A program made the translations under genes and the position numbers. The notes under the pieces are model-generated. The model had not been told where the DNA came from and ran no database searches. It saw nothing but the letters and a program-made list of their open reading frames with translations. Below, in pieces: positions 2,983 through 53,334 of a stretch of 64,000 nucleotides of DNA; positions within the stretch are counted from its first letter, which is position 1, and the number at the start of each line of letters is the position of its first letter. The stretch is from assembly GCA_963663035.1 (NCBI GenBank), contig OY760074.1, positions 214,358-278,357 on the forward strand. Reading direction: 5' to 3'. The stretch is from Acidobacteriota bacterium. Its GTDB lineage: Bacteria > Acidobacteriota > UBA6911 > RPQK01 > JADFOI01.

Positions 2983-4670
2983 GTGTTCAGGCCTGGACCT
3001 TTGTGATGGTGGGACTGTCGTTCGCACTCTATATCTGCGTAGCGTTCCTGTCCAAGGCCACCTCCACCAAGGAGTTCTATATCGCCGGTGGTCGTGTCTC
3101 ACCCGTTGTCAATGGGATGGCCACTGCGGCCGACTGGATGTCGGCAGCGTCCTTCATCTCGATGGCTGGGCTCATCTCCTTCATGGGCCGCGACGGATCC
3201 GTCTACCTGCTGGGCTGGACAGGCGGATACGTCTTGCTGGCTCTGCTGTTGGCCCCTTACCTGAGGAAATTCGGTAAGTATACGGTGCCGGATTTCGTAG
3301 GAGATCGTTATTACTCCCAGCTGGCTCGGGTGGTGGCCGTGGTCTGTGCCATCTTCGTGTCCTTCACCTACGTCTCCGGTCAAATGCGCGGCGTGGGCAT
3401 CGTCTTTTCACGCTTTCTGGACGTGGGAATCAATACCGGAGTGCTCATCGGCATGGGGATTGTCCTCTTCTACGCCGTGATGGGGGGGATGCGGGGGATC
3501 ACCTATACCCAGGTGGCGCAGTACTGTGTCCTGATTTTCGCCTATCTGGTACCCGCCATCTTCATTTCGCTGCTGATGACGGATCACCTGATACCCCAGA
3601 TCGGTTTCGGCGCCGCTGTGAACGATGGATCGGGCCAGTATCTGCTGGAGAAGCTCAACAGCCTGAGTCAAGAACTGGGGTTCGCCGTCTACACTTCGGG
3701 TCAGAAGGGCACGCTGGACGTCCTGTTCATTACAGCAGCCTTGATGGTCGGAACCGCTGGCCTCCCCCATGTGATCGTGCGGTTCTTTACCGTGCCCAGA
3801 GTGTCGGCAGCCCGCAGCTCGGCTGGCTGGGCGCTGGTCTTCATCGCGCTGCTCTACACCGCTGCACCGGCGGTGGCCGTGTTCGCCCGAACCAACCTGC
3901 TCAGCACCATCTCCAACGCTGAATACGCGGATGCCCCGTCCTGGTTCACCAATTGGGAGGCTACGGGTCTGATCACCTTCGAGGACAAGAACCAGGATGG
4001 AATCATTCAGTATGTGGGATCCAACAGCGCGGTTGAGAACGAGCTGACCATTGATCGGGACATCATGGTGTTGGCCAATCCGGAGATCGCCGAGCTTCCC
4101 AACTGGGTGACCGGGCTGGTTGCAGCTGGAGGGCTTGCAGCGGCGCTATCGACGGCAGCTGGCCTTCTGTTGGTTATTTCCAGTGCGATTGCACACGACC
4201 TCTTGAAGAAGGGTCTCCGGCCCGGCATCACCGAGAAGGGCGAACTCATCGCGGCTCGCATCTCGGCTGGACTGGCTGTCTGCATCGCAGGCTATTTCGG
4301 CGTCAACCCTCCTGGCTTCGTGGCCGAGGTGGTCGCCTTCGCCTTCGGTCTGGCTGCCTCCTCCTTCTTCCCAGTGATCATACTCGGTATTTTCTCCAAA
4401 CGGATGAACAAGTACGGAGCGATAGCCGGCATGATCGTCGGTATCACCTTCACTGCGGGATACATCGTCTACTTCAAGTTTCTCCATCCAGAACTCAACT
4501 CGGTGGACCACTGGTGGTGGGGCGTTTCCCCGGAAGGGATTGGCACACTCGGCATGCTCTTGAACTTTGCTGTTTCCACTGCCGTCTCGCAGATGACGCC
4601 GCCGCCCCCCCTAGAGGTTCAGCAATTGGTCGAGTCCATCCGGATCCCCCGAGGGGCCGTCAGTTCGTAA
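2979..4670 (+). CDS. Sodium:solute symporter family (SSF) transporter
   Basis: 563-aa polytopic membrane protein with SSF-like N-terminal region (GGRVSPVVNGMATAADWMSAASFIS). Confidence 0.8.
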   Translation: MSVQAWTFVMVGLSFALYICVAFLSKATSTKEFYIAGGRVSPVVNGMATAADWMSAASFISMAGLISFMGRDGSVYLLGWTGGYVLLALLLAPYLRKFGKYTVPDFVGDRYYSQLARVVAVVCAIFVSFTYVSGQMRGVGIVFSRFLDVGINTGVLIGMGIVLFYAVMGGMRGITYTQVAQYCVLIFAYLVPAIFISLLMTDHLIPQIGFGAAVNDGSGQYLLEKLNSLSQELGFAVYTSGQKGTLDVLFITAALMVGTAGLPHVIVRFFTVPRVSAARSSAGWALVFIALLYTAAPAVAVFARTNLLSTISNAEYADAPSWFTNWEATGLITFEDKNQDGIIQYVGSNSAVENELTIDRDIMVLANPEIAELPNWVTGLVAAGGLAAALSTAAGLLLVISSAIAHDLLKKGLRPGITEKGELIAARISAGLAVCIAGYFGVNPPGFVAEVVAFAFGLAASSFFPVIILGIFSKRMNKYGAIAGMIVGITFTAGYIVYFKFLHPELNSVDHWWWGVSPEGIGTLGMLLNFAVSTAVSQMTPPPPLEVQQLVESIRIPRGAVSS

Positions 4671-4689
4671 ACAAGTCAATAAATCGAGC

Positions 4690-4907
4690 CCTAGCGCCCG
4701 CATTATGCTAAAATTTCTGCTACAGTGTCGCAATCATCCGCGCTGACGGCGTTGTGCGACCCGCAAAGCGGGTACCCCTTGCGCTCCTCGACGTACTGCA
4801 AGAGTACGTCTGCGGGGCGCGACCCGCGAGCGGGTACCCCTCACACGCCTTGTCATCGCGGCGCTTGCGCCACTTCGCTACGAAAACCTATGCATAATGC
4901 GGGCTAG
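4690..4907. mobile_element. MITE family A, copy 1 (218 bp, contains an extra internal hairpin module)
   Basis: Terminal IRs CTAGCGCCCGCATTATGCTAAAA ... TATGCATAATGCGGGCTAG. Internal palindromes: GACCCGCAAAGCGGGTAC, GACGTACTGCAAGAGTACGTC and GGCGCTTGCGCC. No ORF. Related copies at 6292, 34401 and 44075. Confidence 0.7.
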
Positions 4908-4913
4908 AGCATA

Positions 4914-5237
4914 GTGATGTTCAAGTTGTTATCGACCTGGCAGAGGACCTTTCTGCTTGCTGTGCTCTGCTGCCTTGTGAGCTTGGCGGTTGTCGTCATC
5001 GCTCTGAACCTGGCTGTCTGGGGAGCGCCCTTACCCATCTTCCTTTTCTTACTTGGGTGGTTGCTGACTGTGGGGCTACCGACCAGTCTTTCAGTTGTTC
5101 TGGTGATGAGCTTCTGGCGGGGGGGTTCCGTGGAGATGTTCGCGCTTGTTGTGGTGAGCCTGGCGCTGGCTCTCACTCTCGTTTGTCTGGTGCTCCTGAG
5201 ACAGATCATCATGCCTGGGTGGAGAACAAAGCCGTGA
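4914..5237 (+). CDS. Small hydrophobic membrane protein (hypothetical)
   Basis: 107 aa, almost entirely hydrophobic. Its TGA stop (5235-5237) overlaps the GTG start (5234) of the downstream gene, suggesting translational coupling. Confidence 0.4.
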   Translation: MMFKLLSTWQRTFLLAVLCCLVSLAVVVIALNLAVWGAPLPIFLFLLGWLLTVGLPTSLSVVLVMSFWRGGSVEMFALVVVSLALALTLVCLVLLRQIIMPGWRTKP

Positions 5238-6295
5238 AGTTGAACCGGAGGAGTTTCCTGGCCTCACTGCTTTGTGCTTCCTCCTGTGCCAATTCTGGCG
5301 GGCTCCATGAAGACCAACCCAGCGAGCCTGTCTTGGACTTCCATGTCCATCTCCTGGGCGTTGGTGACGAAGGGAGTGGATGTTTTTTATCGGAAAGACA
5401 ACGGACTCACTCCTTGAGCAGTGTTACGCCCACCAACTATTCCCTTCTTCTCGGTCTCCTGGGGTTGGAGCAAAACGGGCACATGGACCGCGACTATGTA
5501 GCGGTACTGGTGGACCAGCTGCAAAGGTCCTCGCTGGAGAAGGCGCTGCTGGTGGGGCAAGACGGCCGTTATGACCAGGATGGGATGTTTGATCGAGCCG
5601 CCACCAATTTCTACGTGCCCAACGAGTATCTCCTCAGAGTTGCCAGGGAGCACCCGGATCTGTTCGTTCCCTGTGTTTCGATCAATCCCAAACGACGTGA
5701 TGCCTTGGAGGAGCTGGAACGTTGTGCCGAGGGGGGAGCTCGAGTTCTGAAGATCCATCCACCAACCCAGGATGTGGATCCCGGCCAGGACCGGTTTCGA
5801 CCCTTTTACCGGCGCTTGGCGGAGTTGGACATCCTGCTCATGGTGCACACCGGGGCCGAACACGGTTCTCCCATAGTGGGGGATGACTACAGTGATCCGC
5901 AGCGGCTGGTGCCGGCACTGCAGGAGGGCTGTACGGTGATTGCCGCTCATGCGGGGATGGGTACTTTTCTGGACTCGGTCGATTTCTTTCCTGCTCTTGT
6001 TGAGCTGATCCAGGACTATCCGAGGCTTTATTGCGACTCGTCGGTGCTGGCAGCAACATCCTATTGGCGATCGCTTCCCCGCATCCTGGAGCAAGACCTG
6101 GTGATGGAGAGGCTCATCCATGGGAGTGATTTCCCTTTCCCTTCCAATGCCCTGGCCTTCTGGAATCGACTTCCTCCCATGGATCTGTTGAGGCTCAGCA
6201 GTGAACCCAACCTTTTAGAGCGAGACTTCCGCCTCAAGCTGGCTCTGGGATTACCGGCAGAGGTGTTCGAGCGCGGCGCACGTCTGCTGGGCTAG
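5234..6295 (+). CDS. Amidohydrolase-2 family (TIM-barrel metal-dependent hydrolase), probable lipoprotein
   Basis: GGAGA RBS 8 nt upstream of GTG 5234. N-terminus VKLNRRSFLASLLCASSC gives a signal peptide with lipobox. Body has HVHLLGV...HTGAEHG...AAHAGMG. The 412-aa ORF from 5057 is regarded as an N-terminal over-extension. Confidence 0.6.
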   Translation: MKLNRRSFLASLLCASSCANSGGLHEDQPSEPVLDFHVHLLGVGDEGSGCFLSERQRTHSLSSVTPTNYSLLLGLLGLEQNGHMDRDYVAVLVDQLQRSSLEKALLVGQDGRYDQDGMFDRAATNFYVPNEYLLRVAREHPDLFVPCVSINPKRRDALEELERCAEGGARVLKIHPPTQDVDPGQDRFRPFYRRLAELDILLMVHTGAEHGSPIVGDDYSDPQRLVPALQEGCTVIAAHAGMGTFLDSVDFFPALVELIQDYPRLYCDSSVLAATSYWRSLPRILEQDLVMERLIHGSDFPFPSNALAFWNRLPPMDLLRLSSEPNLLERDFRLKLALGLPAEVFERGARLLG

Positions 6296-6445
6296 CCCGC
6301 ATTATGCATAAATTTTCTGCTACAGTGTCGCAATCATCCGCGCTGACGGCGTTATGCGACCCGCAAGCGGGTACCCCTCACACGCCTTGTCATCGCGGCG
6401 CTTGCGCCACTTCGCTACGAAAACCTATGCATATTGCTGGGCTAG
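6292..6445. mobile_element. MITE family A, copy 2 (154 bp including both CTAG flanks)
   Basis: CTAGCCCGCATTATGCATAAATTTTCTGCTACAGTGTCGC ... CTATGCATATTGCTGGGCTAG. The left CTAG supplies the TAG stop of the amidohydrolase (6293-6295). The right CTAG supplies the TAG stop of the minus-strand acyltransferase (6442-6444). Confidence 0.7.
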
Positions 6446-9399
6446 GGTTGTAAGAAGGTGAAGCCGGATCGCTTCAGGGTTTCCACAAACTCGCTCTCTG
6501 AAGCGACGAAAGCACGGCCCGTGTCCGTGTCCAGGTCGAGAAATTGAACCAAATCAAAAGGGGAGTTACCCGCTTCGAGCCCATCCGCATGAACCTGTAC
6601 GAATGTGTTCACGGGCAAGGTCTGCCGGCCCATAATGGTGGTCAGCGGGAGCGTGAGCATGCCGTCATAGGCGCGGTAAACGAGTTCCGAGCAGACCAGG
6701 AGGTCGGTGGAAAAGAAGTCGAACTCGAAATCATAGGGTTTGCCATGATGGGAGAAGGCACGGGCAATGGCCTCGCGACGTTGAGCGTTGGTCAACCGCG
6801 GTCGGAGTACTGCCACCGCATCCGACTCGCCCACCGCGTGTTCCAGACTGGTGAAGATCACTCCCTCACTCATGGCCTCGATGACGGCATGGGAATGGCC
6901 GGCTGCATCCCGTCTGAGAAAGTCATCCCAATGGGGTGTTACCCGGAGATCATCGGCTACACCCATCTCCTCGAGGGTGTCCGCGTCACCCAAATAAAAG
7001 GCGGCGTGGGGCCAGAATCCCGGTAAGAAGGCGTTGGACAAAAACCAGTTTCTCCGCGCTATGATGATGTCGCCCGGTTGAAGCAGCTGCCGCAGTTCCT
7101 CCACCTGCTCGGGACCAATCAGTCCCTGGTGGCGAGGGCGATCTCTGAGACGGAAGTCGCCGATCCACGTTGAAACCAGTGCCTGGGCCCGATAAAGCGG
7201 GTCCCTCACAGAAAGACGCACTTCCTGGAGGGCCAGCTCCAGCCTGCGGGCACCGATTTGATCGACAGCCTGCTCAATGGCGGGCCCTGCTCCAAGGGCT
7301 GCTTCTACGAGTTCGTCCCAGGGTGGACCGCTTCCGTAAGCACCCGTCTTCTGCAGGCGGTCAAAAGTTTGGGCAGCCTCCTGAAGCTGAGAGACCAACT
7401 CCGCACTGGAGAGGCTGGCCAGCAGGCGGTCGTAGGTGCCTTCTTGAATCTCCCAGGCCGAGTCCCCCTCGTTGAGTTTGCGCTGGGTCTGTTCGTCGTC
7501 GCCGAAGGTATCGACGATGGCGGCTGCCTTTTCCAGAAGTGTGGCCGCACTTGCATAGGCAAGCAAAAAGGCACGCCCCTCCATCTGGCCTTCCATTGAA
7601 TCATCGTGCGCTGCCCGGTAGGTCCAGACAGTCCGCAGGAGTGCCGTGCGCAGGTTGAGGTAAGTCAAGAGTAGCTGGTGGATGGCATCGTCATCCTCCT
7701 GGCTATAGAAGCTGCCTTCTCCCCTCGAGAACGATTCACGCAGATTGTGCATGCCCTCTTCCAAGCGATCCAGTTCGGCGATGGCAGCGGCCGTACCGCG
7801 GCCATCGGATTCAAGCCTGGCAGTGACCAGGACAGGATCCTGATTGCGCAGTTCGTACCAGAGCGAGGGAGCCTGGGAAAGATCCTCCACCCCACGATCG
7901 CGCAGCTGGGCCACAAAAAAACCGAGCAGAATCAGTAACACAGCCAGCAGTACAGCGAAGGCCGTGCGCAGGGGTAGAGGCCGACGAGGAGGAAGGCCCG
8001 ACCATCCCAGCACTTCCACCCGGTATCGATCGCGCATATGGTCCATGCGCAGGAGAAGATCACTCTGGGCCTGAGCCACCCGGGTGACGGCACCGAGCTT
8101 CATCCAAGAACTCACACGTCCTTCCAGATGAGAGAATAGCTTCCAGACGCGGAGGATATAAAAGCGGGCAAAGAGTCCGGTGGGGATCAGTAAGAGGGTG
8201 AAGGCAATGGTTGCGGCAACAGAGGAGTAAAGAGACAGCAACCAAATCTCGAGCCCGTAAAACAGGGGGAATGCAATTATACCCACCAGGATATGGAAGA
8301 ATGAAAGCGTCGGGGGGTGTTTCGTTTTGGACAGGATCTTATTGCTGACTCCCCTGGTCAGGTAGTAGGGAATGGCTCCGGTGAGAAAGCCGAACAGTGC
8401 TGGTATGGCGCCCAGGAGAACTTCGGCGGCCACCTGAAGCGGGGCCAACGGCCCGGGCAGCAGGCGGGCAGCTTCCTCCAGGAGCCGGCGGTCCACCCCG
8501 GCCTTCTCACGGAGTCTCTCGTAACGCTCCAGTTTGCGTTCAATCTCTGTGACAGCATCCGGGTCTGCTTGGGCGTAATGGTTGAGGCAGTCTGCCGTCC
8601 TGTAAAGGAGCTCCCCCCGAAGGCCCTTTCGGTCCACCCCAGCCAGTCCAGTTTTTCGTACGCGCTGGAGATAGACATCTACCAGCCGCTCCACCAAGGG
8701 CAGGTTTTCTTGTGATTCCACTTGGAAGGCAAGCTTCTTGAGGGCAGAGTCGATCCCTCCGGTCAATTCCCGGATGGCCTGGCGCGGATTCTCGGCGTGG
8801 AGCGGGGCGAGATCCGCGATCTTGAGCGGTTCTCCAAAGCGGACGAACGCATCGGCCCGGAATTTTCGGCGGGGCTCGAACTGAAGTCCGACCGGGACAA
8901 TCCGAAGACCCAGGGTAAAGTCGGTAGCCGACTCCGCCTTCAGAGCGATGCGTGCCGCCCCCGTCTTGATGGGTACCACCTGGGGATCGTCCTGACTGAT
9001 GCCCTCGGGAAAGATGGCGGTGGCAAGCTTCTGGTCAAGGAGTTCGGCGTAGCGGTCCAGGGCCTCCAGATTGCGTCTCCCACCCCGCGGATCGTCCTGG
9101 GCGCGCACCAGTGGAATGGCCCCGAAGGCCTCCAAAACGGTTCCCAGAGGACCGTAAAAGAGTGTGTGCTTTGCCCCAAAGTGCAGGGGCCGAGCAATCA
9201 GATGAACCAAAATGGCAGGGTCGAGCAGGGAGTTGGGGTGATTGGCCACCAGAAGGACTGCGCCTTTTCTGGGGATTAATTCCGCCCCCTGCACCTGGAT
9301 GGAACGGTAGTACACCCGAAAGACGAGTCGGAGGAGTGCCTTAATGAGGAAACGGACCCACTGCTGGAAGGAGGTCATGATGAACCCAATGTGTACCAA
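6442..9399 (-). CDS. Multidomain membrane protein: N-terminal PlsC-type lysophospholipid acyltransferase, central TM region, C-terminal YiiX-like permuted papain-fold domain
   Basis: 985 aa. N-terminus has ANHPNSLLD (HxxxxD acyltransferase motif) and FPEG. The C-terminus GDIIIARRNWFLSNAFLPGFWPHAAFYLG...CSELVYRAYDG resembles the YiiX/DUF830 permuted NlpC-P60-like fold. Confidence 0.55.
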   Translation of the reverse strand: MVHIGFIMTSFQQWVRFLIKALLRLVFRVYYRSIQVQGAELIPRKGAVLLVANHPNSLLDPAILVHLIARPLHFGAKHTLFYGPLGTVLEAFGAIPLVRAQDDPRGGRRNLEALDRYAELLDQKLATAIFPEGISQDDPQVVPIKTGAARIALKAESATDFTLGLRIVPVGLQFEPRRKFRADAFVRFGEPLKIADLAPLHAENPRQAIRELTGGIDSALKKLAFQVESQENLPLVERLVDVYLQRVRKTGLAGVDRKGLRGELLYRTADCLNHYAQADPDAVTEIERKLERYERLREKAGVDRRLLEEAARLLPGPLAPLQVAAEVLLGAIPALFGFLTGAIPYYLTRGVSNKILSKTKHPPTLSFFHILVGIIAFPLFYGLEIWLLSLYSSVAATIAFTLLLIPTGLFARFYILRVWKLFSHLEGRVSSWMKLGAVTRVAQAQSDLLLRMDHMRDRYRVEVLGWSGLPPRRPLPLRTAFAVLLAVLLILLGFFVAQLRDRGVEDLSQAPSLWYELRNQDPVLVTARLESDGRGTAAAIAELDRLEEGMHNLRESFSRGEGSFYSQEDDDAIHQLLLTYLNLRTALLRTVWTYRAAHDDSMEGQMEGRAFLLAYASAATLLEKAAAIVDTFGDDEQTQRKLNEGDSAWEIQEGTYDRLLASLSSAELVSQLQEAAQTFDRLQKTGAYGSGPPWDELVEAALGAGPAIEQAVDQIGARRLELALQEVRLSVRDPLYRAQALVSTWIGDFRLRDRPRHQGLIGPEQVEELRQLLQPGDIIIARRNWFLSNAFLPGFWPHAAFYLGDADTLEEMGVADDLRVTPHWDDFLRRDAAGHSHAVIEAMSEGVIFTSLEHAVGESDAVAVLRPRLTNAQRREAIARAFSHHGKPYDFEFDFFSTDLLVCSELVYRAYDGMLTLPLTTIMGRQTLPVNTFVQVHADGLEAGNSPFDLVQFLDLDTDTGRAFVASESEFVETLKRSGFTFLQP

Positions 9400-9804: not shown

Positions 9805-10031
9805 TCGGCGAGATCCCCGGAAAGACCTTCGTCGGCCAACTGCTGCTCAAAGGCTGGGTCGAGTTTTGCGCATTCTACGGCCAGTCGAGTGTGCTCAATT
9901 CGGCTCAGTTTCTCCTCCACGGCTTCTTGGATTGCACGACTACGATTGGGAAACCGGCGCTCAAGGACCAGGCTGTCGATTCGAGCTACCAGCTCATCGT
10001 CTAGTGTGATGGCAATCTTCGCTTTCCTCAT
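9789..10031 (-). CDS. Ribbon-helix-helix (CopG/MazE-like) antitoxin
   Basis: [20 protein letters not shown] is an RHH N-terminal strand-helix. Overlaps the toxin start by 16 nt. A longer MINCHTIAM extension to 10055 is possible. No clear SD for either start. Confidence 0.65.
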
Positions 10032-18490: not shown

Positions 18491-19963
18491 ATGAACGTAC
18501 TAACCAGGTTTCAAACATTTGGAAAATCTCGACGGGGCGGCATCCTGGCCTTACTGCTCGGTATCCTGGCCACAGTCCTCTGGGTGCAGGTTCGAGCGGG
18601 AGCCTTTCCGGGATACCCTCACGTGGGTGGTGTCGACCCTCAGCCGTCTGTCCACCCCAAAACGGGTGTCCAGTTCCAGGCGTCCCTCTCCCAGCCGATG
18701 ATCGTCCAGGGAAGTGATGGCACGGTCTACTTGGACCTGTCTGTCGTTACTCCCAAGATCTCGCGGCCGGACATCTTGAGGATGCCCACCGACACCATCG
18801 TGGTCCTGGATCGCAGCGGTTCCATGGCAGAGGACAACAAGTGGATGTTTGCCACCCAAGCTGTCCACTCGCTCCTGGACCGCCTCATGTCCGGAGACCG
18901 CATCGCTTTGGTGACCTTCGACACCCACGCCCGTGTCCAATCGCAATTGGTCTCGGCCAACGAAACGAACATCCAGCGCTTTAGAGATATCGTGAACAGC
19001 CTGAGTCCCGGAGCTTCGACCAATCTGGGCGACGGACTCCTGGCCGCCGAAAGGATGGCAGCAGCTTTACGCGTATCAGAGCGGGGGCGACGAGTCATCC
19101 TTCTGTCCGATGGTCAGGCCAATGTTGGTATCTCCCACCCGCTGGAACTCAATGCCATTGCCCGACGGATTGCGGATCAGGGCAGCATTCTTTCCACTGT
19201 TGGCATGGGACTGGGATTCAACGAGAACCTCCTGGCTTCCCTGGCTGACAACGGCATGGGCAGCTTCAGTTATCTCGAGCATCTGGAATCGCTGGGTACG
19301 ATCCTGGCCCAGGAGCTGGATGACTCCCGCGACGTCTACGCCGATAGTTCCCAGATGCGAATTCATCTCCCCATGGGTGTGGAGCTTGTGGAGGCCTCCG
19401 GTTATCCCTTTGTTCTGGAGGGAAGAACGGCCGTTATCCGGACCGGTCAGCTTTTCCAGGATAGTAACAAAAGCTTTATGGCCACTCTCCGGGTTGCCAA
19501 TCACGTGCCCGCTGAGTACACGCTGGGCAACATCGACTTGAGCTACCGGGTGGACGGTCATTCCTACAAACAGGAAGTCGAATCGTCAGGATTGACCATC
19601 GCCTGCGTTCCCGCAGAGCGAGAAGAGGAAGCGGTGGCTTCGATCGACAAGGATGTCTATCGGGACGCCTGGATCAGGAACAACCTGGGCTCGGTCATGA
19701 GAGAAGTGGGTGACTTCGTTCGCAAAGGAGACCGGCAACAAGCCGAGGAGCTGCTGGAAGACTATAAAGAACGCCTGGAGGAAGCAGATCAGGCCGTGCC
19801 CGGTATAAAGAAGGAGGCAACTGCTCAACTGGACGAGCTGAAAGCCAGAGTCGACGATGCCTTCCAGGGCCCCGCCCAGAGAGCCAAGCAGAACCGTGCC
19901 GCCAAGGCCTTCCTGGGTGAGAGTCAGGAGCTTCAAAGAGAAGTCAACAAGAACAACAACTAG
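18491..19963 (+). CDS. von Willebrand factor type A (VWA) domain membrane protein
   Basis: 490 aa. N-terminal TM. MIDAS motif DRSGSM ... SDG ... Coiled-coil/charged C-terminus. The stop TAG is the last 3 nt of the CTAG that flanks IS copy 1. Confidence 0.75.
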   Translation: MNVLTRFQTFGKSRRGGILALLLGILATVLWVQVRAGAFPGYPHVGGVDPQPSVHPKTGVQFQASLSQPMIVQGSDGTVYLDLSVVTPKISRPDILRMPTDTIVVLDRSGSMAEDNKWMFATQAVHSLLDRLMSGDRIALVTFDTHARVQSQLVSANETNIQRFRDIVNSLSPGASTNLGDGLLAAERMAAALRVSERGRRVILLSDGQANVGISHPLELNAIARRIADQGSILSTVGMGLGFNENLLASLADNGMGSFSYLEHLESLGTILAQELDDSRDVYADSSQMRIHLPMGVELVEASGYPFVLEGRTAVIRTGQLFQDSNKSFMATLRVANHVPAEYTLGNIDLSYRVDGHSYKQEVESSGLTIACVPAEREEEAVASIDKDVYRDAWIRNNLGSVMREVGDFVRKGDRQQAEELLEDYKERLEEADQAVPGIKKEATAQLDELKARVDDAFQGPAQRAKQNRAAKAFLGESQELQREVNKNNN

Positions 19964-21602
19964 CCCGGATTATTCATAAATTCTGAAGAAGGGGTCTGAT
20001 CGAGGGCACAAAAAGATGCCGTACCTATTTGATATAAAAGGGGTTATGAAACAACTCCAAACCAAAAAGGTACGGCCCAGCGATGCATCAGTCTGCCAGA
20101 TCAACTTGCCATCTCACCCTGACAGAAAAGTGGTGGCTCGATTCGATGGAGGCCGGCTCTCCTCCGATGCCGGGCTGCTGTGTCTGTACGCCCTGGATCA
20201 ACAGCACGGACTGACGGCTGGCTTTGCCTCCTGCCTGAAGGACGCTCGAGATAGCCGCTACGTCCGCCACCAGATTCGCGAACTGCTCACCCAGCGCAGC
20301 TTTCAGATCGTGGCCGGCTATGAGGACTGCAACGATGCCGACAGCTTGCGCTCGGATCCCATCTTCAAGACCGTGTGTGATCGGCTGCCGGAAAGCGATC
20401 CGGATCTGGCTTCTCAACCCACGCTGTCGCGACTGGAGAACTCGGTGGACTCGAAGGATCTCACTCGCCTGGGACAGTGGCTGCTGGAGACCTACTTGAA
20501 GCACCGCAAGAAGAGCCGGCCCGAGAAGATCATCCTGGACATCGACAGCACGGATGACGTCACGCATGGGCAGCAGGAGTTCAGCTTTTACCACGGCTAT
20601 TATCGCGAGCACATGTATCATCCGCTGCTGCTATTCGATGGCGAGACGGGCGATCTGGTATGTGCGCTACTGCGGCCCGGCAACCAGGGGGCGGCCGCCC
20701 ACGCGGTGGCGGTTCTCAAACGGGTGGTGGCCCGGATGCGCCAGGTTCTGGGATCCGATGTTCCGATCGAAGTGCGAGCCGACAGTGGCTTTGCGACGCC
20801 GGCACTGTACGAGTTCTGTGAGGAGGAAAAACTGCAGTATGTGGTGGGCTTTGCCCGCAACTCCCGGCTGGCGGCCACCGTCGAGCCCTTGGTTGAGCAG
20901 GTGCAAGCAGACTATGACGACTCAGGAGAAAAGCAACGCCAGTTCACCGAGCTCGTCTATCAGGCCGACAGTTGGGACCGGGAGCGGCGCATGGTGGCCA
21001 AGGTGGAAGTGAGCGAGCGCGGGTTCAACCGTCGCTTTGTGGTCACCAACCGCCAGGATCTCACGGCCGGGCAGCTGTATGACCACTACATCGGACGGGG
21101 CCAGTGCGAGAACTTCGTGAAAGCTTTCAAAAAAGATCTGGCCATGGATCGCTTGAGCTGCCACCGTTTCCTGGCCAACCAGTTCCGACTCTTCATCCAC
21201 GCCCTGGCCTATGTCTTAATCCTGCGCCTGCGGGATTACCTGTGCGGGACTCCCTGGCACAACCTGGAGATTGAGACGCTCCGCCGCCGCCTGTTCAAAA
21301 TCGGTGCCCGGGTTCGGGAAACTTCTCGTCGCATCTGGGTGCACCTGGCATCGTCTTATCCCGAACAAAAGCTCTTCGCATTACTGATGCACCGTCTGTG
21401 TCCCACCTGACGGTCCCCTGACTCCCTGCGCCAACACAGATATACAGCCCCCTGCGGGCCGAGCTGTTTCCGGAAGGGGCTCTCGCTTCATCTCTATTCG
21501 GCTCAACAAGCTTGGACGCCTTGTAATCGCACCTGAACACACTCTCAGCCCTGAACTTCCGCAGAAAATCGACACTCACCCCAAACTTATGAATAATTGC
21601 GG
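19964..21602 (+). mobile_element. Insertion sequence, IS4-superfamily (best fit IS1380 family), copy 1, 1639 bp, flanked by CTAG/CTAG
   Basis: Imperfect terminal IRs CCCGGATTATTCATAAATT ... AACTTATGAATAATTGCGG (start with CC). Single 464-aa DDE transposase ORF. CTAG at 19960-19963 and 21603-21606. Identical to copy 2 apart from one synonymous SNP seen at 20027. Confidence 0.8.
20016..21410 (+). CDS. DDE transposase (IS4/IS1380-like)
   Basis: 464 aa. DSTD...RADSGF...Y(2)R(3)E(3)K (YIGRGQCENFVKAFK) DDE_Tnp_1-type signature. N-terminal PTLSRLEN motif. Confidence 0.85.
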   Translation: MPYLFDIKGVMKQLQTKKVRPSDASVCQINLPSHPDRKVVARFDGGRLSSDAGLLCLYALDQQHGLTAGFASCLKDARDSRYVRHQIRELLTQRSFQIVAGYEDCNDADSLRSDPIFKTVCDRLPESDPDLASQPTLSRLENSVDSKDLTRLGQWLLETYLKHRKKSRPEKIILDIDSTDDVTHGQQEFSFYHGYYREHMYHPLLLFDGETGDLVCALLRPGNQGAAAHAVAVLKRVVARMRQVLGSDVPIEVRADSGFATPALYEFCEEEKLQYVVGFARNSRLAATVEPLVEQVQADYDDSGEKQRQFTELVYQADSWDRERRMVAKVEVSERGFNRRFVVTNRQDLTAGQLYDHYIGRGQCENFVKAFKKDLAMDRLSCHRFLANQFRLFIHALAYVLILRLRDYLCGTPWHNLEIETLRRRLFKIGARVRETSRRIWVHLASSYPEQKLFALLMHRLCPT

Positions 21603-21616
21603 CTAGGAGGAACATA

Positions 21617-25303: not shown

Positions 25304-25627
25304 ATGGTGACCCTCGAAGACTTTCAGAAATTAGAGATCCGGATCGGCAAGGTCCTCTCCGTAGAGAAAGTTGCTGGCGCGGATAAGCTGCTGAAATTCA
25401 TCTTTGACTTCGGCAGCGAACAAAGGCAAATCATCGCTGGAATGGCGACTTTCTTCCCGGAACCCTCGAGCTTGGAGGGAAAAGAAATGCCGGTCTTGCT
25501 CAATATTGAACCCAGGACCTTCAGGGGTGAGGTGAGCCACGGAATGATTATTGCAGCAGACGTTGATGGACATCCGGTTCTGCTGCATCCGGAAAGAGAA
25601 GTGGAACCGGGTAGTAGGGTTCTGTAG
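25304..25627 (+). CDS. tRNA-binding domain protein (CsaA/EMAP-II-like)
   Basis: 107 aa. LEIRIGKVLSVEKVAGADKLLKFIFDFG is the OB-fold tRNA-binding domain signature. Confidence 0.75.
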   Translation: MVTLEDFQKLEIRIGKVLSVEKVAGADKLLKFIFDFGSEQRQIIAGMATFFPEPSSLEGKEMPVLLNIEPRTFRGEVSHGMIIAADVDGHPVLLHPEREVEPGSRVL

Positions 25628-25653
25628 CCGGGACTATGCATAATCCCGGCTAG
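25624..25653. repeat. Solo IR-IR palindrome of MITE family A (minimal element or excision footprint)
   Basis: GTAGCCGGGACTATGCATAATCCCGGCTAG consists of two abutted MITE-A terminal repeats. The left flank GTAG contains the TAG stop of the tRNA-binding gene. The right flank is CTAG. Confidence 0.5.
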
Positions 25654-26293: not shown

Positions 26294-26494
26294 AACCCGC
26301 ACTTCTCACACCCGCTCTACTGCAGCGGCGCAATGATCCGCCCTGACTTTGTTGCGCGACCCGCAAGCGGGTACCCCTCGCGCGCCAGTCGGAGCCGCAG
26401 GCTTTAGCCTGCGGGCCCGTGGGCTAAAGCCCACGGCTCTGTTTTCCGGTCCTTCCGCCGCTTCGCGACGACCTGGTGTGAGAAATGCGGGTCA
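26294..26494. mobile_element. MITE family B (chimeric)
   Basis: Terminal IRs AACCCGCACTTCTCACACC ... GGTGTGAGAAATGCGGGTCAA (19 bp, 1 mismatch). Internally carries the GCGACCCGCAAGCGGGTACCCC module of MITE-A and both REP-A hairpins (GCAGGCTTTAGCCTGC, GTGGGCTAAAGCCCAC). Confidence 0.55.
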
Positions 26495-28090: not shown

Positions 28091-29729
28091 CCCGGATTAT
28101 TCATAAATTCTGAAGAAGGGGTCTGATCGAGGGCACAAAAAGATGCCGTACCTCTTTGATATAAAAGGGGTTATGAAACAACTCCAAACCAAAAAGGTAC
28201 GGCCCAGCGATGCATCAGTCTGCCAGATCAACTTGCCATCTCACCCTGACAGAAAAGTGGTGGCTCGATTCGATGGAGGCCGGCTCTCCTCCGATGCCGG
28301 GCTGCTGTGTCTGTACGCCCTGGATCAACAGCACGGACTGACGGCTGGCTTTGCCTCCTGCCTGAAGGACGCTCGAGATAGCCGCTACGTCCGCCACCAG
28401 ATTCGCGAACTGCTCACCCAGCGCAGCTTTCAGATCGTGGCCGGCTATGAGGACTGCAACGATGCCGACAGCTTGCGCTCGGATCCCATCTTCAAGACCG
28501 TGTGTGATCGGCTGCCGGAAAGCGATCCGGATCTGGCTTCTCAACCCACGCTGTCGCGACTGGAGAACTCGGTGGACTCGAAGGATCTCACTCGCCTGGG
28601 ACAGTGGCTGCTGGAGACCTACTTGAAGCACCGCAAGAAGAGCCGGCCCGAGAAGATCATCCTGGACATCGACAGCACGGATGACGTCACGCATGGGCAG
28701 CAGGAGTTCAGCTTTTACCACGGCTATTATCGCGAGCACATGTATCATCCGCTGCTGCTATTCGATGGCGAGACGGGCGATCTGGTATGTGCGCTACTGC
28801 GGCCCGGCAACCAGGGGGCGGCCGCCCACGCGGTGGCGGTTCTCAAACGGGTGGTGGCCCGGATGCGCCAGGTTCTGGGATCCGATGTTCCGATCGAAGT
28901 GCGAGCCGACAGTGGCTTTGCGACGCCGGCACTGTACGAGTTCTGTGAGGAGGAAAAACTGCAGTATGTGGTGGGCTTTGCCCGCAACTCCCGGCTGGCG
29001 GCCACCGTCGAGCCCTTGGTTGAGCAGGTGCAAGCAGACTATGACGACTCAGGAGAAAAGCAACGCCAGTTCACCGAGCTCGTCTATCAGGCCGACAGTT
29101 GGGACCGGGAGCGGCGCATGGTGGCCAAGGTGGAAGTGAGCGAGCGCGGGTTCAACCGTCGCTTTGTGGTCACCAACCGCCAGGATCTCACGGCCGGGCA
29201 GCTGTATGACCACTACATCGGACGGGGCCAGTGCGAGAACTTCGTGAAAGCTTTCAAAAAAGATCTGGCCATGGATCGCTTGAGCTGCCACCGTTTCCTG
29301 GCCAACCAGTTCCGACTCTTCATCCACGCCCTGGCCTATGTCTTAATCCTGCGCCTGCGGGATTACCTGTGCGGGACTCCCTGGCACAACCTGGAGATTG
29401 AGACGCTCCGCCGCCGCCTGTTCAAAATCGGTGCCCGGGTTCGGGAAACTTCTCGTCGCATCTGGGTGCACCTGGCATCGTCTTATCCCGAACAAAAGCT
29501 CTTCGCATTACTGATGCACCGTCTGTGTCCCACCTGACGGTCCCCTGACTCCCTGCGCCAACACAGATATACAGCCCCCTGCGGGCCGAGCTGTTTCCGG
29601 AAGGGGCTCTCGCTTCATCTCTATTCGGCTCAACAAGCTTGGACGCCTTGTAATCGCACCTGAACACACTCTCAGCCCTGAACTTCCGCAGAAAATCGAC
29701 ACTCACCCCAAACTTATGAATAATTGCGG
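28091..29729 (+). mobile_element. Insertion sequence, IS4-superfamily (best fit IS1380 family), copy 2, 1639 bp, flanked by CTAG/CTAG
   Basis: Same IRs and ORFs as copy 1. CTAG at 28087-28090 and 29730-29733. Inserted in the yfhO-like gene. Confidence 0.8.
28143..29537 (+). CDS. DDE transposase (identical to 20016-21410)
   Basis: Protein identical over 464 aa. Confidence 0.85.
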   Translation: MPYLFDIKGVMKQLQTKKVRPSDASVCQINLPSHPDRKVVARFDGGRLSSDAGLLCLYALDQQHGLTAGFASCLKDARDSRYVRHQIRELLTQRSFQIVAGYEDCNDADSLRSDPIFKTVCDRLPESDPDLASQPTLSRLENSVDSKDLTRLGQWLLETYLKHRKKSRPEKIILDIDSTDDVTHGQQEFSFYHGYYREHMYHPLLLFDGETGDLVCALLRPGNQGAAAHAVAVLKRVVARMRQVLGSDVPIEVRADSGFATPALYEFCEEEKLQYVVGFARNSRLAATVEPLVEQVQADYDDSGEKQRQFTELVYQADSWDRERRMVAKVEVSERGFNRRFVVTNRQDLTAGQLYDHYIGRGQCENFVKAFKKDLAMDRLSCHRFLANQFRLFIHALAYVLILRLRDYLCGTPWHNLEIETLRRRLFKIGARVRETSRRIWVHLASSYPEQKLFALLMHRLCPT

Positions 29730-30432
29730 CTAGGGCTGCGGCTCCCACATACATGCTGCCCAATCCCAGCACCAGCCGTGGTCGTTCCCGTGCCCGGATA
29801 AGACGAAGCCCGCTATAGAGCCCGGCGGCGATAGCCGTGTAAAACACATACTGGGGATGGCCGGCAAGAATCTGCATGGTGATGGCAAACATACCCATCA
29901 GACACCAGGTGAAGGAACGTTCTTGGAGCAGGCCATCAATGGCCAGAAAGAGCAGTGGTGCCCATACCATGGCGCAGAGATTGGGGAGGTGCCCGGCAGA
30001 GACATGCAGGAAATAGGGACCGGAGAACATAAAGAGGATGGATGAAAGGAGGCAAGCTGCTGGATGAAGCCCCCGGTGAAAGGTCCAGAGATAGATAAAC
30101 AGCCCGGCCAGGAACACATGCAGCGCAATGCTCACATTAATTGCCTTGGCAAGCGGCAGCACCAGATACACCCAGTTGGGTGGATAGAGCAAGGCGGACT
30201 GAAAGCCTCCAAAGTATGGCATCCCCGAAAAGATGTGCGGATTCCACAGGGCCAGGTTGCCTTGGCCCAGCTGGCTGAAACCAAACTCGCGCCAATAGAC
30301 GAACTGCGAGGACAGGTCGGTGCCCAATTGGGAGAGAATCACCTCTTTCGACGTGAACAGCACATCGACGAACATGAGAAGCGTCAATCCAAAGAGAACC
30401 AGAAGAGCCAGTAGGAAAGTTTTCTCTCGCAT
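29730..30432 (-). pseudogene. YfhO-family membrane protein gene, N-terminal part
   Basis: MREKTFLLALLVLFGL...DLSSQFVYWREFGFSQ...NPHIFSGMPYFGG is the characteristic YfhO N-terminus. The ORF-track extension to 29422 reads into the IS. Confidence 0.6.
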
Positions 30433-34400: not shown

Positions 34401-34601
34401 ATAGGCGGGATTATGCATAAATTGTCTACTGCAGTGCCGCAATCATCCACGCTGACTGCGTTGTGCTTCCTTGGGCTCCTCGGCGTACTGCATGAGTACG
34501 CCGAGGAGCCCGACCCGCAAGCGGGTACCCCTCGCAGGCCTTGTCATCGCGGCGCCTGCTGCACTTCGTCACGAAAATCTATGCATAACCCCGCCTCCTA
34601 G
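34401..34601. mobile_element. MITE family A, copy 3, inside the glycan locus
   Basis: ATAGGCGGGATTATGCATAAATTGTCTACTGCAGTGCCGC ... ATGCATAACCCCGCCTCCTAG. Carries a 14-bp-stem hairpin CTCCTCGGCGTACTGCATGAGTACGCCGAGGAG. Left flank is a degenerate ATAG. Confidence 0.65.
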
Positions 34602-34613: not shown

Positions 34614-34640
34614 GCCGGGATTATGCATAACCCCGGCTAC
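34614..34640. repeat. Second solo IR-IR palindrome of MITE-A, immediately right of copy 3
   Basis: GCCGGGATTATGCATAACCCCGGCTAC. Indicates nested or repeated insertion at this site. Confidence 0.4.
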
Positions 34641-44078: not shown

Positions 44079-44228
44079 CCGGGATTATGCATAAATTTTC
44101 TACTGCAGTGCCGCAATCATCCACGCTGACTGCGTTGTGCGACCCGCAAGCGGGTACCCCTTCGCACGCCTTGTCATCGCGGCGCCTGCGGCACTTCGTC
44201 ACGAAAACCTATGCATAATCCCGGCTAG
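44075..44228. mobile_element. MITE family A, copy 4 (154 bp including CTAG flanks)
   Basis: CTAGCCGGGATTATGCATAAATTTTCTACTGCAGTGCCGC ... CTATGCATAATCCCGGCTAG. The left CTAG overlaps the TAG stop of the upstream gene. Confidence 0.7.
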
Positions 44229-52673: not shown

Positions 52674-52787
52674 CTAGGCGGGATTATGCCTTATTCCGGC
52701 TACACCGGATCAAAGGCCGGTAGTACCGTGCCGGTATCCTCTGATCAACAGCACGGACTGACGGCTGGCTTTGCCTCCTGCCTGATA
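52674..52787. mobile_element. IS/MITE remnant: degenerate IR-IR palindrome plus a 47-bp internal fragment of the IS transposase gene
   Basis: CTAGGCGGGATTATGCCTTATTCCGGCTAC (compare 25624). Then 52741-52787 matches transposase-gene positions 20194-20240 (CTGGATCAACAGCACGGACTGACGGCTGGCTTTGCCTCCTGCCTGA). Confidence 0.5.
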
Positions 52788-53334
52788 GCCTGTGAAGCTT
52801 CTCATTCAGCTGGTAAAAGTCTTCGGCATCTCTAATGCAGAAGAAGTCCAGTCGCAAGCGTAGACGCGTGTCCACTGGAATCTCGGGTGCAAGGATCTCG
52901 ATGGAGTTCATAGAGTAGGTCATGACTTCGTTACTAAAGTGGACCTGCATGTTGACAAACAAACTGCAAAGGAGAACGAGCATGGCCATGACGTTAAACA
53001 GGACATGATGCTTGGCGAATTGGAAAAGTGTTTCTATTGACTCTCTGGGACTTGTCCTGCTCAGGATGAAGTTGGCGGCCCACAGGCTGACATAGCCGAT
53101 TGCCACTACCATGAGTGCCAGGATGCTGAGGTAGGCGAACGCATTCATCAGTTCAAAGCCTTTGGTTGCTTCTCGGTAGATGGCGTCTCGGAATGAGGGC
53201 GAGATTGCCGCCAGAAGTCTTACCGCCCAGTCCATTGGCGAGAATAAACCTTGCCAGACACCATAGGCAAGACTACCTAACAAAAGTACGGCCTTGATGC
53301 GCCCCAGAATCAAAAGCTTGTGACCCATTTTCAC
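52684..53334 (-). CDS. Hypothetical membrane protein; its 3-prime end reads into the IS remnant
   Basis: 216 aa, 4 TM helices. The last roughly 35 codons are encoded by the IS-derived remnant, so the native C-terminus was probably replaced. Confidence 0.4.
   Translation of the reverse strand: MKMGHKLLILGRIKAVLLLGSLAYGVWQGLFSPMDWAVRLLAAISPSFRDAIYREATKGFELMNAFAYLSILALMVVAIGYVSLWAANFILSRTSPRESIETLFQFAKHHVLFNVMAMLVLLCSLFVNMQVHFSNEVMTYSMNSIEILAPEIPVDTRLRLRLDFFCIRDAEDFYQLNEKLHRLSGRRQSQPSVRAVDQRIPARYYRPLIRCSRNKA

Follow-up and report, generated by a model that had tools for sequence, protein, structure and literature searches.

How does a mobile element come to lie exactly between two tail-to-tail genes, abutting the stop codon of each, with both proteins still ending where their orthologues do? 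The question is raised by a 146-bp sequence within a 64,000-nt stretch of an Acidobacteriota contig (henceforth "the window", i.e., the whole of the DNA analyzed; Table 1), which the initial annotation had taken for a MITE whose duplicated CTAG flanks supply the TAG stops of both neighboring genes.

A MITE Flush against Two Stop Codons

The stop codons were indeed found as proposed: the amidohydrolase frame closes with the TAG of the left CTAG, and the acyltransferase stop is the reverse complement of 6442–6444, within the right CTAG, which leaves precisely the 146 bp of the element in between. The C-termini (...RLLG followed by the stop for the amidohydrolase, ...GFTFLQP followed by the stop for the acyltransferase) end at the positions seen in the respective orthologues, and the amidohydrolase start is placed at 5234 by the gene callers on sister assemblies (5057 in the ORF list; the gene call in strain L102 is 6001–7062). 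The identification as a MITE is likewise supported, the sequence being short, non-coding, bounded by terminal inverted repeats (I9 and I11, 26 nt, 92%), flanked by a CTAG duplication and represented by dispersed copies; its 146 bp (209 bp for the long form) are crossed by no ORFs other than the terminal parts of the two neighboring genes.

A detail absent from the initial annotation is that the direct repeat around this particular copy is 11 bp rather than 4 bp long (TGCTGGGCTAG at 6285–6295 and 6435–6445), because its right inverted repeat deviates from the family consensus (ATTGCTGGG in place of AATGCGGG); that inverted repeat is identical in strains L102 and L127. Reading all 11 bp as the true target duplication was rejected, as the right inverted repeat would then be left truncated, and no other copy has a left flank resembling its right end. 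The 11-bp direct repeat with its aberrant right inverted repeat is a peculiarity for which the insertion model set out below does not account.

Table 1. Coordinates of the genes, mobile elements and element parts discussed in the text (window positions).
Feature	Position	Strand	Remarks
MITE copy A, long form, two hairpin modules	4695..4903	.	CTAG at 4691-4694 and 4904-4907
Amidohydro_2 gene	5234..6295	+	ORF 5057..6295; Pfam PF04909; TAG stop 6293-6295 in left CTAG
Left CTAG, 4-bp target-site duplication	6292..6295	.	Role from empty sites of related IS
MITE body, short form, 146 bp, non-coding	6296..6441	.	Repeat families D2/D3, inverted repeats I9/I11
Left terminal inverted repeat CCCGCATTATGCATAAATTTTC	6296..6317	+	14/16 terminal bases identical to IS left end CCCGGATTATTCATAA
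20-nt hairpin module GACCCGCAAGCGGGTACCCC, MITE apex	6358..6377	+	
Right terminal inverted repeat GAAAACCTATGCATATTGCTGGG	6419..6441	+	Last 9 nt aberrant
Right CTAG duplication copy	6442..6445	.	Acyltransferase stop; empty target of third IS copy found in L127
Acyltransferase/Peptidase_C92 gene, 978/985 aa	6442..9378	-	ORF 6442..9399; Pfam Acyltransferase + Peptidase_C92
IS1380-family copy 1, 1,639 bp	19964..21602	+	CTAG 19960-19963 (VWA gene stop) and 21603-21606
Collapsed copy 1, inverted repeats fused at TATGCATA	25628..25649	.	Flanks GTAG (tRNA_bind stop) / CTAG
IS1380-family copy 2, 1,639 bp	28091..29729	+	CTAG 28087-28090 and 29730-29733
MITE copy C, long form, one hairpin module	34405..34594	.	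Degenerate flanks ATAG / CTCC
Collapsed copy 2	34615..34636	.	Flanks CAAG / CTAC
MITE copy D, short form	44079..44224	.	CTAG 44075-44078 (DUF5916/CBM9 gene stop) and 44225-44228
Collapsed copy 3	52678..52699	.	Flanks CTAG / CTAC

A Probable Autonomous Partner of the IS1380 Family

A candidate source of the transposase is found within the same window, where two complete insertion sequences (IS), both coding for an IS1380-family transposase, reside, the first with a single ORF for the 464-aa protein at 20016–21410 and the second breaking a long minus-strand ORF. The transposase passes the family models for IS1380 (PF13701, 505.9 bits; NF033539, 399.7 bits at a cutoff of 180), the inverted repeats of the IS start with CC (CCCGG..., CCGCA...), and its ends, CCCGGATTATTCATAA and CCGCAATTATTCATAA, agree with the MITE ends at 14–15 of 16 positions. 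We consider the element at 6296–6441 to be a non-autonomous miniature derivative (MITE) of this IS, which is active in the lineage, with a probability of about 0.85. The DDE transposase of the IS would bind the inverted repeats starting with CC and would mobilize the MITE in trans; the latter step is inferred because empty sites were found only for the IS, and for no MITE copy among the orthologous loci.

In passing the family models, in having a single ORF in ~1.64 kb, and in its CC-initial repeats and short duplication (4 bp here), the IS resembles IS1380, IS1247 and ISEcp1, and the duplications of IS1380-family members range from 4 to 5 bp in ISfinder. It differs from these in that it strictly targets CTAG, a palindrome, or sequences one base away from it, and in that the lineage has spawned abundant MITEs, in long, short and collapsed forms. 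We know of no description of a strict CTAG target for the IS1380 family, and the literature searched contained nothing linking IS1380 with either CTAG or MITEs. The duplication of IS1247, itself an IS1380-family member, is 5 bp (PMC3281130). Bacterial MITEs such as Correia/NEMIS, RUP, ERIC and Nezha are covered by a review that makes no mention of IS1380, CTAG or stop codons (PMC10969869); the element shares with them its small size, lack of coding capacity, inverted repeats, target duplication, strong hairpin, mostly intergenic location and modularity, and differs from them in its IS1380 parent and its CTAG target.

Target Site and Natural Empty Sites

Targeting of CTAG with a 4-bp duplication, as put forward in the initial annotation, is supported by natural empty sites of the IS, which hold a single CTAG in IS-free strains and have CTAG on both sides when filled. 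At the site of IS copy 1, strain L108 (99.7–99.9% identical to the window) reads ...AACAACAACTAGGAGGAACATAATG, with one CTAG where the window has CTAG-IS-CTAG, and that single CTAG also forms the stop of the VWA gene. In the sister strain L127, a third IS copy lies inside the CTAG equivalent to 6442–6445, with CTAG on both sides and with the acyltransferase stop regenerated. The L108 empty allele at IS copy 2 is CTAGgagttgcactgccgCTAG, with two CTAGs 18 bp apart, the filled allele again being CTAG-IS-CTAG. Two MITE copies in other MAGs, moreover, have non-palindromic flanks that form perfect duplications (CTAA/CTAA in L073, TTAG/TTAG in L087), and the duplication must therefore lie outside the inverted repeat and be 4 bp in length.

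The IS thus integrates at the CTAG palindrome and leaves a 4-bp CTAG duplication on each side. The accompanying suggestion that insertion is tolerated because the duplication regenerates the stop has held up as well: the empty/filled IS pairs (L108 versus the window, and the window versus L127) retain their TAG stops, and, as the duplication regenerates TAG, proteins are left unchanged by insertions on their stop codons. The core of this stop-preserving mechanism has been shown, for the autonomous IS, by the sister strains. The MITE lies exactly between the two tail-to-tail genes because the family inserts into CTAG and copies it, with both stops being kept.

Two other ways of reading the flanks have to be weighed against these sites. 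CTAG might be the outermost part of the inverted repeat rather than a duplication, with the element bringing its own TAG stops and truncating or replacing the gene ends; in filled sites alone the palindrome does look like an extension of the inverted repeat, and NTAG is seen at both ends of many copies. Empty sites, however, retain exactly one CTAG, the CTAA...CTAA and TTAG...TTAG flanks are direct and not inverted repeats, the VWA gene ends in the same TAG in the IS-free strain, and both convergent genes have C-termini equal in length to those of their orthologues, which renders such a reading extremely unlikely. IS630 elements target CTAG with a TA duplication, and an IS630/Tc1-like model, whereby only the central TA of the CTAG target is duplicated and the element starts with G and ends with C, predicts sequences at a CTAG target that are identical to those predicted by the 4-bp model. 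It is, nevertheless, highly unlikely, given that the transposase here is of the IS1380 family and that L073 and L087 would each need one extra terminal-base mutation, with the 4-bp model needing none. IS5 elements target YTAR/CTAG, and their insertions can coincide with TAG stops; affiliation with either IS5 or IS630 was rejected, since the transposase family differs (as does, for IS630, the duplication length).

Long and Short Forms and the Hairpin Fold

Strain L127 carries a long-form MITE at the same junction site, compared to which the window copy has a deletion of precisely 62 bp between two direct copies of the 20-nt hairpin module; the MITE at 6296–6441 was, then, originally of the long form and became short through this deletion. 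The MITE folds as a single long imperfect hairpin (RNA fold energies of -70.9 and -82.6 kcal/mol, with z-scores of -4.2 and -7.0). Rfam gave no match at the gathering score over the whole window and nothing relevant at E-values up to 1 within 4600–6600, which speaks against the element belonging to a known RNA family, and a promoter/terminator scan of 6000–6800 returned no terminator-like site within the MITE. Judging by the predicted fold, the element, with which both transcripts would end in a long hairpin, may serve as a transcript-end structure.

Palindromic elements filling the gap between convergent genes bring REP/BIME/REPIN sequences to mind, although REPINs are not known to make target duplications. 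The element could be imagined either as a palindrome of the REP/REPIN type that is mobilized by a RAYT (Y1) transposase or as an immobile conserved structured terminator: its location between convergent genes is typical of REP, its hairpin is strong, some copies have GTAG flanks, and in relatives this junction holds a genuine REP-like pair (GTAGGGGCGCAC...). The inverted repeats, however, correspond to those of an IS whose transposase is of the DDE type, and target duplications are present, whereas REPINs depend on RAYT and show no inverted-repeat match to a DDE IS (in part after PMC3116915). Nor can the sequence be a conserved terminator, because it is missing from the orthologous junction of the relatives. 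The probability of either variant is practically negligible.

The Ancestral Junction of the Two Genes

Removal of the MITE and one CTAG had been predicted to yield an ancestral arrangement in which the two genes shared a single CTAG as overlapping stops, and this part of the initial annotation was not established, as relatives at 76–78% identity have no CTAG at the junction. Six MITE-free junctions were compared (amidohydrolase 76–78% identical where measured), with spacers of 13, 32, 133, ~159 and ~1,358 bp, or with the genes overlapping. The stops in these relatives are TAA or TGA, the sole TAG being that of L106, whose acyltransferase stop is shifted; five of the six junctions have both stops in unchanged positions, and in the L113 type the amidohydrolase stop is lost. 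The search for a close relative without the MITE at 6296–6441 returned none (L103, L104, L106 and L107 are distant, at 76–78%): the sequence of the 93% relative L105 ends before the amidohydrolase/acyltransferase junction and offers no empty site, scanning metagenomes for the C-terminal pattern of the acyltransferase yielded distant relatives only, and every member of the amidohydrolase cluster carries the MITE.

On the simplest reading, the ancestral junction would have been one CTAG common to both stops (GGGCTAGGG); otherwise, a short spacer, since lost, might have separated two CTAG stops. In the latter scenario, the genes never overlapped: the MITE entered one of two separate C-TAG stops, and the spacer and one CTAG were then lost, through either slippage at the CTAG repeats or an adjacent deletion caused by the transposase. 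Such a route is realistic because the L108 empty allele of IS copy 2 (CTAGgagttgcactgccgCTAG) has two CTAGs 18 bp apart, meaning that the same outcome was reached there, unless an 18-bp polymorphism pre-existed, and a spacer is present in five of the six junctions of the relatives (13 bp at the shortest). It demands, on the other hand, a C-TAG at both ancestral stops plus an extra deletion, neither ancestral CTAG is attested among the TAA/TGA stops of the relatives (TAG only in L106), and the L113 type, with its collapse to overlapping genes, makes an overlap not implausible. We regard the two-CTAG route as unlikely, though worth keeping in mind.

Family Copies and the CTAG Census

The window holds eight copies or remnants in 64 kb (four full/long, three collapsed and one related), and the family is represented at no fewer than 17 loci in other Acidobacteriota MAGs. 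Matching CTAG flanks are seen on both sides of copies A and D and of the copy at 6296–6441. The other stop-codon coincidences that had been pointed out are all real: the VWA gene stop at 19960 is part of the CTAG to the left of a full IS, the tRNA_bind gene (window 25304–25627) ends in the GTAG that begins at 25624 and flanks a collapsed copy of 22 bp, and the DUF5916/CBM9 gene stop at 44075 falls in the left CTAG of another MITE. The TAA stop of the gene at 52684..53334 (minus strand), in turn, lies inside the third collapsed copy. For the VWA and CBM9-like genes, the gene callers choose start codons other than those of the listed ORFs. An orthologue of copy A is present in L105 (93% identical in protein), and no MITE presence/absence difference between strains was found over ~35 kb, the differences being IS insertions and the long/short form; the MITE copies would seem to predate those of the IS.

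Counting CTAGs, which the initial annotation had proposed as a check and which was done here over the 64-kb window, gave 45 versus the 241 expected from base composition (an about five-fold depletion), and these 45 comprise 13 element flanks, 20 coding-interior sites, 4 other stops and 8 intergenic sites. The flank/stop pattern is not a matter of chance, because CTAG occurs only 45 times where 241 are expected and 13 of the 45 are family flanks. The occupied fractions of stop-codon CTAGs (~4/8) and of other non-coding CTAGs (~4–5/13) are not distinguishable. The supposed enrichment of CTAG at gene ends owing to C preceding TAG turned out to be weak, given the overall depletion: C precedes 8 of the 14 TAG stops, with 4 of these 8 being element-associated. 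At 9 of the 48 element ends scanned, the flanking TAG terminates an open frame of 200 codons or more, versus 1 of 96 for the two control frames; the scan missed the aberrant right end at 6442, with which the count becomes 10 of 49. Only 1 of ~9 insertions is inside a gene. CTAG is rare, insertions in coding sequences would be selected against, and a sizeable part of the tolerated CTAGs would be stop codons; surviving copies would, then, cluster at gene ends.

The 20-nt Module at the Apex

The 20-mer at the MITE apex (GACCCGCRAGCGGGTACCCC at 6358–6377) deserves separate treatment. Its presence varies among orthologous MITE copies (window versus L105), one of its two copies has been lost between near-identical strains (window versus L127), and at one and the same place in the MITE it can lie in either orientation. 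The exact 20-mer occurs at more than 100 loci in unrelated contexts and in at least seven phyla, among others in the loops of unrelated REP-like/MITE-like palindromes of Planctomycetota, Chloroflexota and Desulfobacterota-type "delta" MAGs; viral contigs gave one match only. All six of its frames are stop-free, and it is found in frame within conserved genes (DnaX, IscS, ribosomal protein S5 and LeuRS), the hosts being AT-rich CPR genomes (36% GC) and one cyanobacterium. At the DnaX site, a 7-residue insert is present in 7–9 of 121 relatives scattered over the tree, and the DnaX of L051 has the insert, whereas a 96%-identical orthologue (P0241/L124) does not, the net difference being 15 nt.

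No consistent target duplication was seen for the 20-mer at four filled/empty pairs, no transposase was found adjoining it at the locus inspected (L029), and its sequence was not found in the literature searched. The inverted 20-mer pair of L029 was considered as transposase brackets and dismissed, as the enclosed gene looks, by eye, to be of the YaaA/DUF328 type. That the 20-mer always sits at the apex of a palindrome was also rejected, ungapped flank complementarity (at least 11 of 14 positions) being only modestly enriched (5.8% versus 0.5%).

Very small palindromic units that nest in repeats and vary at orthologous sites are not without precedent: small dispersed repeats (SDRs), Rickettsia palindromic elements (which occur in frame inside genes) and the GC clusters of yeast mitochondria are all of this kind, the SDRs of heterocystous cyanobacteria reportedly having been treated by Elhai et al. 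in 2008 (as cited in PMC3116915). The 20-mer behaves as small repeats do, being variable at orthologous sites, nested in repeats and present in many unrelated contexts, but differs from these examples in being only 20–21 nt long and in having the same exact sequence in at least seven phyla, AT-rich CPR included. To our knowledge, neither a mechanism nor a partner protein has been described for it. It is conceivable, with the odds somewhat short of even, that the 20-nt hairpin is a self-standing insertion module of very small size, mobile or templated, that crosses phyla. Were it mobile, few known mobile DNA units would be as small: how would a 20-bp hairpin then spread between phyla and into essential genes?

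Implications

The element is of an ordinary MITE kind, and with it the IS1380 family gains a CTAG-specific, MITE-spawning lineage; no description of stop codons rebuilt by MITE duplications was found in the literature searched. It shows, as a clean example from nature, how elements come to lie directly beside genes by choice of target and not by chance. Landing on a palindrome that includes a stop codon is safe, since the duplication restores that stop for the strand in need of it. Such sites are, in addition, re-usable, because every insertion adds a CTAG to a CTAG-depleted genome, and the order of re-use can be read in L127, where the MITE came first and the IS then entered the duplicated CTAG of the MITE. 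The clustering of elements at gene ends is thereby explained, and genome annotators are warned that a TAG stop beside such an element may be "half target, half duplication". The lineage in which all of this is seen, moreover, comes from a phylum known almost only from MAGs.

The junction and its two stop codons

At the junction, which reads ...CGTCTGCTGGG CTAG CCCGCATTATGCATAAATTTTC ... GAAAACCTATGCATATTGCTGGG CTAG GGTTGTAAGAAGG..., the CTAG flanks of the MITE are, as the initial annotation had it, the TAG stops of both convergent genes (see the table of features). Gene callers return the same gene pair in sister assemblies (353 aa and 978 aa), and comparison with orthologues places both C-termini at the orthologues' positions (...RLLG-stop for the amidohydrolase and ...GFTFLQP-stop for the acyltransferase); neither flanking protein is altered by the MITE. 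The further examples of flanks doubling as stops are also correct, the CTAG at 19960 containing the stop of the VWA gene, the CTAG at 44075 that of the DUF5916/CBM9 gene, and the GTAG at 25624 that of the tRNA_bind gene (25304-25627). Overlooked at first reading was that the direct repeat of this particular copy is 11 bp long (TGCTGGGCTAG, at 6285-6295 and 6435-6445), the final 7 nt of its right inverted repeat being the amidohydrolase's final 7 coding nt and not the family consensus. This aberrant right end is also present in strains L102 and L127 (L-numbers denote matching loci in other assemblies and MAGs), and no other MITE copy shows such flank/end similarity; it could be due to chance and an indel, or to a short conversion tract.

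Features of the window discussed in the text
Feature	Position	Strand	Remarks
ORF with Amidohydro_2	5057..6295	+	TAG stop at 6293-6295; Pfam
ORF with Acyltransferase and Peptidase_C92	6442..9399	-	Stop is the reverse complement of 6442-6444; Pfam
Full MITE copies	4695-4903, 6296-6441, 34405-34594, 44079-44224		Repeat family, several forms in the window
Collapsed copies, 22 bp (n = 3)	25628-25649, 34615-34636, 52678-52699		Inverted repeats fused at internal palindrome TATGCATA
MITE relative	~26295-26492		Ends differ
IS copies 1 and 2, 1,639 bp	19964-21602, 28091-29729		Left end CCCGGATTATTCATAA, right end CCGCAATTATTCATAA
20-mer GACCCGCRAGCGGGTACCCC	6358-6377, 4739-4759, 4821-4840, 26358-26377, 34512-34531, 44141-44160
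REP-like family, GTAGGGGCGCACAGCCGTGC...GGGCGCACGGCTGTGCGCCCCTAC	48709-48784		Headed by GTAG
Third hairpin repeat family, GAGCCGCAGGCTTTAGCCTGCGGGC	26382-26441, 57420-57502, 61686-61727, 62899-62940

The MITE family and its IS1380 partner

The 146-bp element belongs to a multicopy family whose ends (CCCGCATTATGCATAA or CCGGGATTATGCATAA) match those of the two IS copies, each of which encodes a 464-aa transposase passing the IS1380-family models (PF13701, 505.9 bits; NF033539, 399.7 bits, cutoff 180). Both IS copies have CTAG on either side, and these CTAG-flanked copies, together with the shared ends, therefore make the short element a MITE of an IS1380-family IS. The autonomous element shows every family feature tested, while the short one has the structure that defines a MITE, and its own movement, in trans by the IS1380-family transposase, is suggested by the shared ends; a search for empty sites of the MITE copies found none. 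When 185,579 species genomes were scanned with the MITE's central 20-mer, the MITE family appeared, among the matches listed, in Acidobacteriota MAGs only, which makes that phylum the probable source of the window.

The whole MITE forms one long imperfect hairpin (plus strand -70.9 kcal/mol, z -4.2; minus strand -82.6, z -7.0), which would form the 3'-terminal part of the two transcripts and might play a transcript-end role; no T-tract terminator was detected in it. The long form, seen at the same site in L127, consists of the left arm, a 20-mer, a 42-bp second hairpin, another 20-mer and the right arm, and in the window and L102 exactly 62 bp are missing, with the two direct 20-mers as their limits, the short form thus being a recombination product of the long one. 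The 22-bp copies probably have a similar origin, the two inverted repeats having recombined through their TATGCATA cores. The TAA stop of the gene at 52684..53334(-) lies inside one of them (52678-52699), and its last 4-5 codons are therefore element-derived.

Natural empty sites

Several assemblies of the window's lineage are 99.7-99.98% identical and differ in IS content, insertions distinguishing strains even at 99.98% identity. L108 is without both IS copies and at site 1 reads ...AACAACAACTAGGAGGAACATAATG, with one CTAG vs CTAG-IS-CTAG in the window; this single CTAG is already the stop of the VWA gene and overlaps the next gene's ribosome-binding site. In L127, a sister strain sharing a 2.59-Mb contig with L109, a third IS copy sits exactly in the CTAG that the window has singly at 6442-6445 (...TATGCATATTGCTGGG CTAG (CCCGGATTATTCATAA...TTATGAATAATTGCGG) CTAG GGTTGTAAGAAGG), so that the window is the empty site for that insertion, by which the acyltransferase stop was rebuilt a second time. 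The core of the reading, that CTAG is the insertion target and is duplicated, regenerating the stop, is shown for the IS by these natural empty sites (L108; the window vs L127), and in the second case the CTAG concerned is the right flank of the MITE. Were the palindromic CTAG part of the inverted repeat instead, the empty sites would not keep exactly one CTAG, and that option is excluded both by them and by MITE copies in other MAGs with the perfect non-palindromic direct repeats CTAA...CTAA (L073) and TTAG...TTAG (L087), which also speak against a duplication limited to TA, as in IS630.

Some strain differences are worth recording separately. IS copy 2 (28087-29733 with its flanks) interrupts a long ORF on the minus strand, whose reading frame then continues for 103 codons within the IS. 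An IS3-family element (HTH_Tnp_1 and rve ORFs, ~1.27 kb) is present in L102 (10780-12046) and at the start of L108, and absent at window ~10009-10012. The VWA gene is called at 498 aa in L109 (6874-8370) and at 490 aa in both the window and L108, owing to a 1-nt indel that lets the frame run into the IS, and that indel is probably a long-read homopolymer error.

The ancestral junction

In every relative found, the two genes lie next to each other in convergent orientation, with a highly variable junction between them.

Junctions between the two genes in relatives
Locus	Spacer	Stops (amidohydrolase/acyltransferase)
L107	13 bp	TAA / TAA
L104	32 bp	TAA / TAA
L106	133 bp, microsatellite and REP-like hairpin	TGA / TAG after one extra Tyr codon
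L111	~159 bp, REP-like pair	TGA / TAA
L103	~1,358 bp, with IS110	TGA / TAA
L113-type	Stop and spacer deleted; amidohydrolase runs 17 codons into neighbour's antisense	TGA (downstream) / TAA

CTAG is absent from the junction in all six relatives tabulated (protein identity 76-78%, measured for L103, L104, L106 and L107), and at this distance the proposal that both ancestral stops shared one CTAG is not established. The filled site is most simply read in this way, and we would put the probability of a single-CTAG ancestor at about one half. A two-CTAG origin, in which nearby CTAGs became the two flanks and the intervening sequence was lost, strikes us as the less probable, rather doubtful one, even if IS copy 2 makes it realistic: the empty allele (L108 16473-16494, CTAGgagttgcactgccgCTAG) has two CTAGs vs CTAG-IS-CTAG in the filled allele, from which 18 bp (gagttgcactgccg plus one CTAG) lying between the two CTAGs in L108 are missing, so two neighbouring CTAGs can become the two flanks while what lay between them disappears.

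Gaps between convergent genes are usually occupied by REP/REPIN elements, which are indeed present at this junction in relatives, whereas the MITE at 6296-6441 has target duplications and ends matching a DDE insertion sequence. The GTAG-headed REP-like family is present at the junction in L103 (8340-8415), L106 (7160-7190) and L111/L114/L122, and in one lineage (L113, L116, L117 and L118) the genes overlap by ~50-60 nt following the stop/spacer deletion. The arms of the third hairpin family reach 33 nt, with 100% complementarity between distant copies, and one copy is nested within the MITE relative (26295-26492).

CTAG counts and occupancy

An enrichment of CTAG at gene ends, which the initial annotation had invoked, is not established: the window holds 45 CTAGs vs 241 predicted from base composition and 77 from a second-order Markov model (TTAG and CTAA alone show stronger depletion), and C precedes 8 of the 14 TAG stops (TGA 25, TAA 10; 49 curated genes), 4 of these 8 being element-associated. 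Classified against the same curated list, the 45 comprise 13 element flanks, 20 in coding interiors, 4 other stop codons and 8 intergenic ones. With each element counted once, occupancy is ~4/8 at stop codons, ~4-5/13 at other non-coding sites and 1/21 in coding sequence (IS copy 2, within the split ORF), which is consistent with insertion targeted to CTAG and with selection against the disruption of genes; no extra preference for stops is evident in the window's occupancy data. Across the window and other MAGs, the flanking TAG closes a frame of 200 codons or more at 9 of the 48 element ends scanned, or 10/49 once the aberrant right end at 6442, skipped by the scan, is included, vs 1/96 control frames.

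The 20-nt apex module

The 20-mer (5-bp stem, 4-nt loop) forms the apex of the MITE hairpin. MITE copy C (34405-34594) has one module; copy A (4695-4903) has two, in place of which its orthologue in L105, a 93% relative, has TTCC and TTCG, and in other MAGs the module is reversed at the equal position or missing. Exact matches occur in at least 101 stretches of the species-genome collection, against a chance expectation estimated at roughly 2 to 20. Among the matches listed (loci examined: L001-L101 and L124-L126), it is frequently found in loops of further palindromic repeats and spans unrelated contexts in Planctomycetota, Chloroflexota, Acidobacteriota, 'delta', Syntrophorhabdales, Verrucomicrobiota, Thermaceae, WOR-3, CPR and a cyanobacterium, all of them MAGs, which may only mirror the order of the scan. 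MAGs of Gemmataceae, Thermoguttaceae and Thermomicrobiales share a further cross-phylum repeat, the hairpin CCCCTCTCCCG...CGGGAGAGGGG and then GGGGGTGAGGG, whose loop contains the 20-mer in some cases and lacks it in others (L023, L071, L007, L064, L078, L090).

In 36%-GC CPR genomes, the 20-mer is in frame within the conserved genes for DnaX, IscS and ribosomal protein S5, as it is within the LeuRS gene of a cyanobacterium. The DnaX segment FSG-RPASGYP-GLIKT has no counterpart in E. coli DnaX structures, solved homologues of IscS are 4 residues shorter at LINAQ-RPASGYP-EIIFTS, and a cyanobacterial LeuRS has 5 additional residues at the 20-mer vs 38 orthologues. A 96% identical DnaX orthologue without the insert reads TCAGGAGCTGGCGGTTTG vs TCAGGCAGACCCGCAAGCGGGTACCCCGGCTTG, a net 15 nt; the 7-residue insert occurs at one site in 7-9 of 121 relatives, which are dispersed across a neighbour-joining tree, with some of the inserts degenerate (GPASGNP, GPAGGHP, GPANGCP, RNENGHL), and the remaining relatives have exactly two residues there. 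No target duplication, adjoining enzyme gene or Rfam family was found for the 20-mer, nor, in a literature search, a paper with its sequence. A very small element mobilised in trans is one possible explanation; others are patch repair templated by further copies, or gene conversion from them, or else a lateral exchange of alleles.

Relation to known systems

CTAG is a known target of IS5 and IS630; we know of no such target for IS1380, and literature searches returned nothing linking the two. Added interest lies in the strain-level snapshots of the insertion mechanism and in the unexplained 20-nt module.
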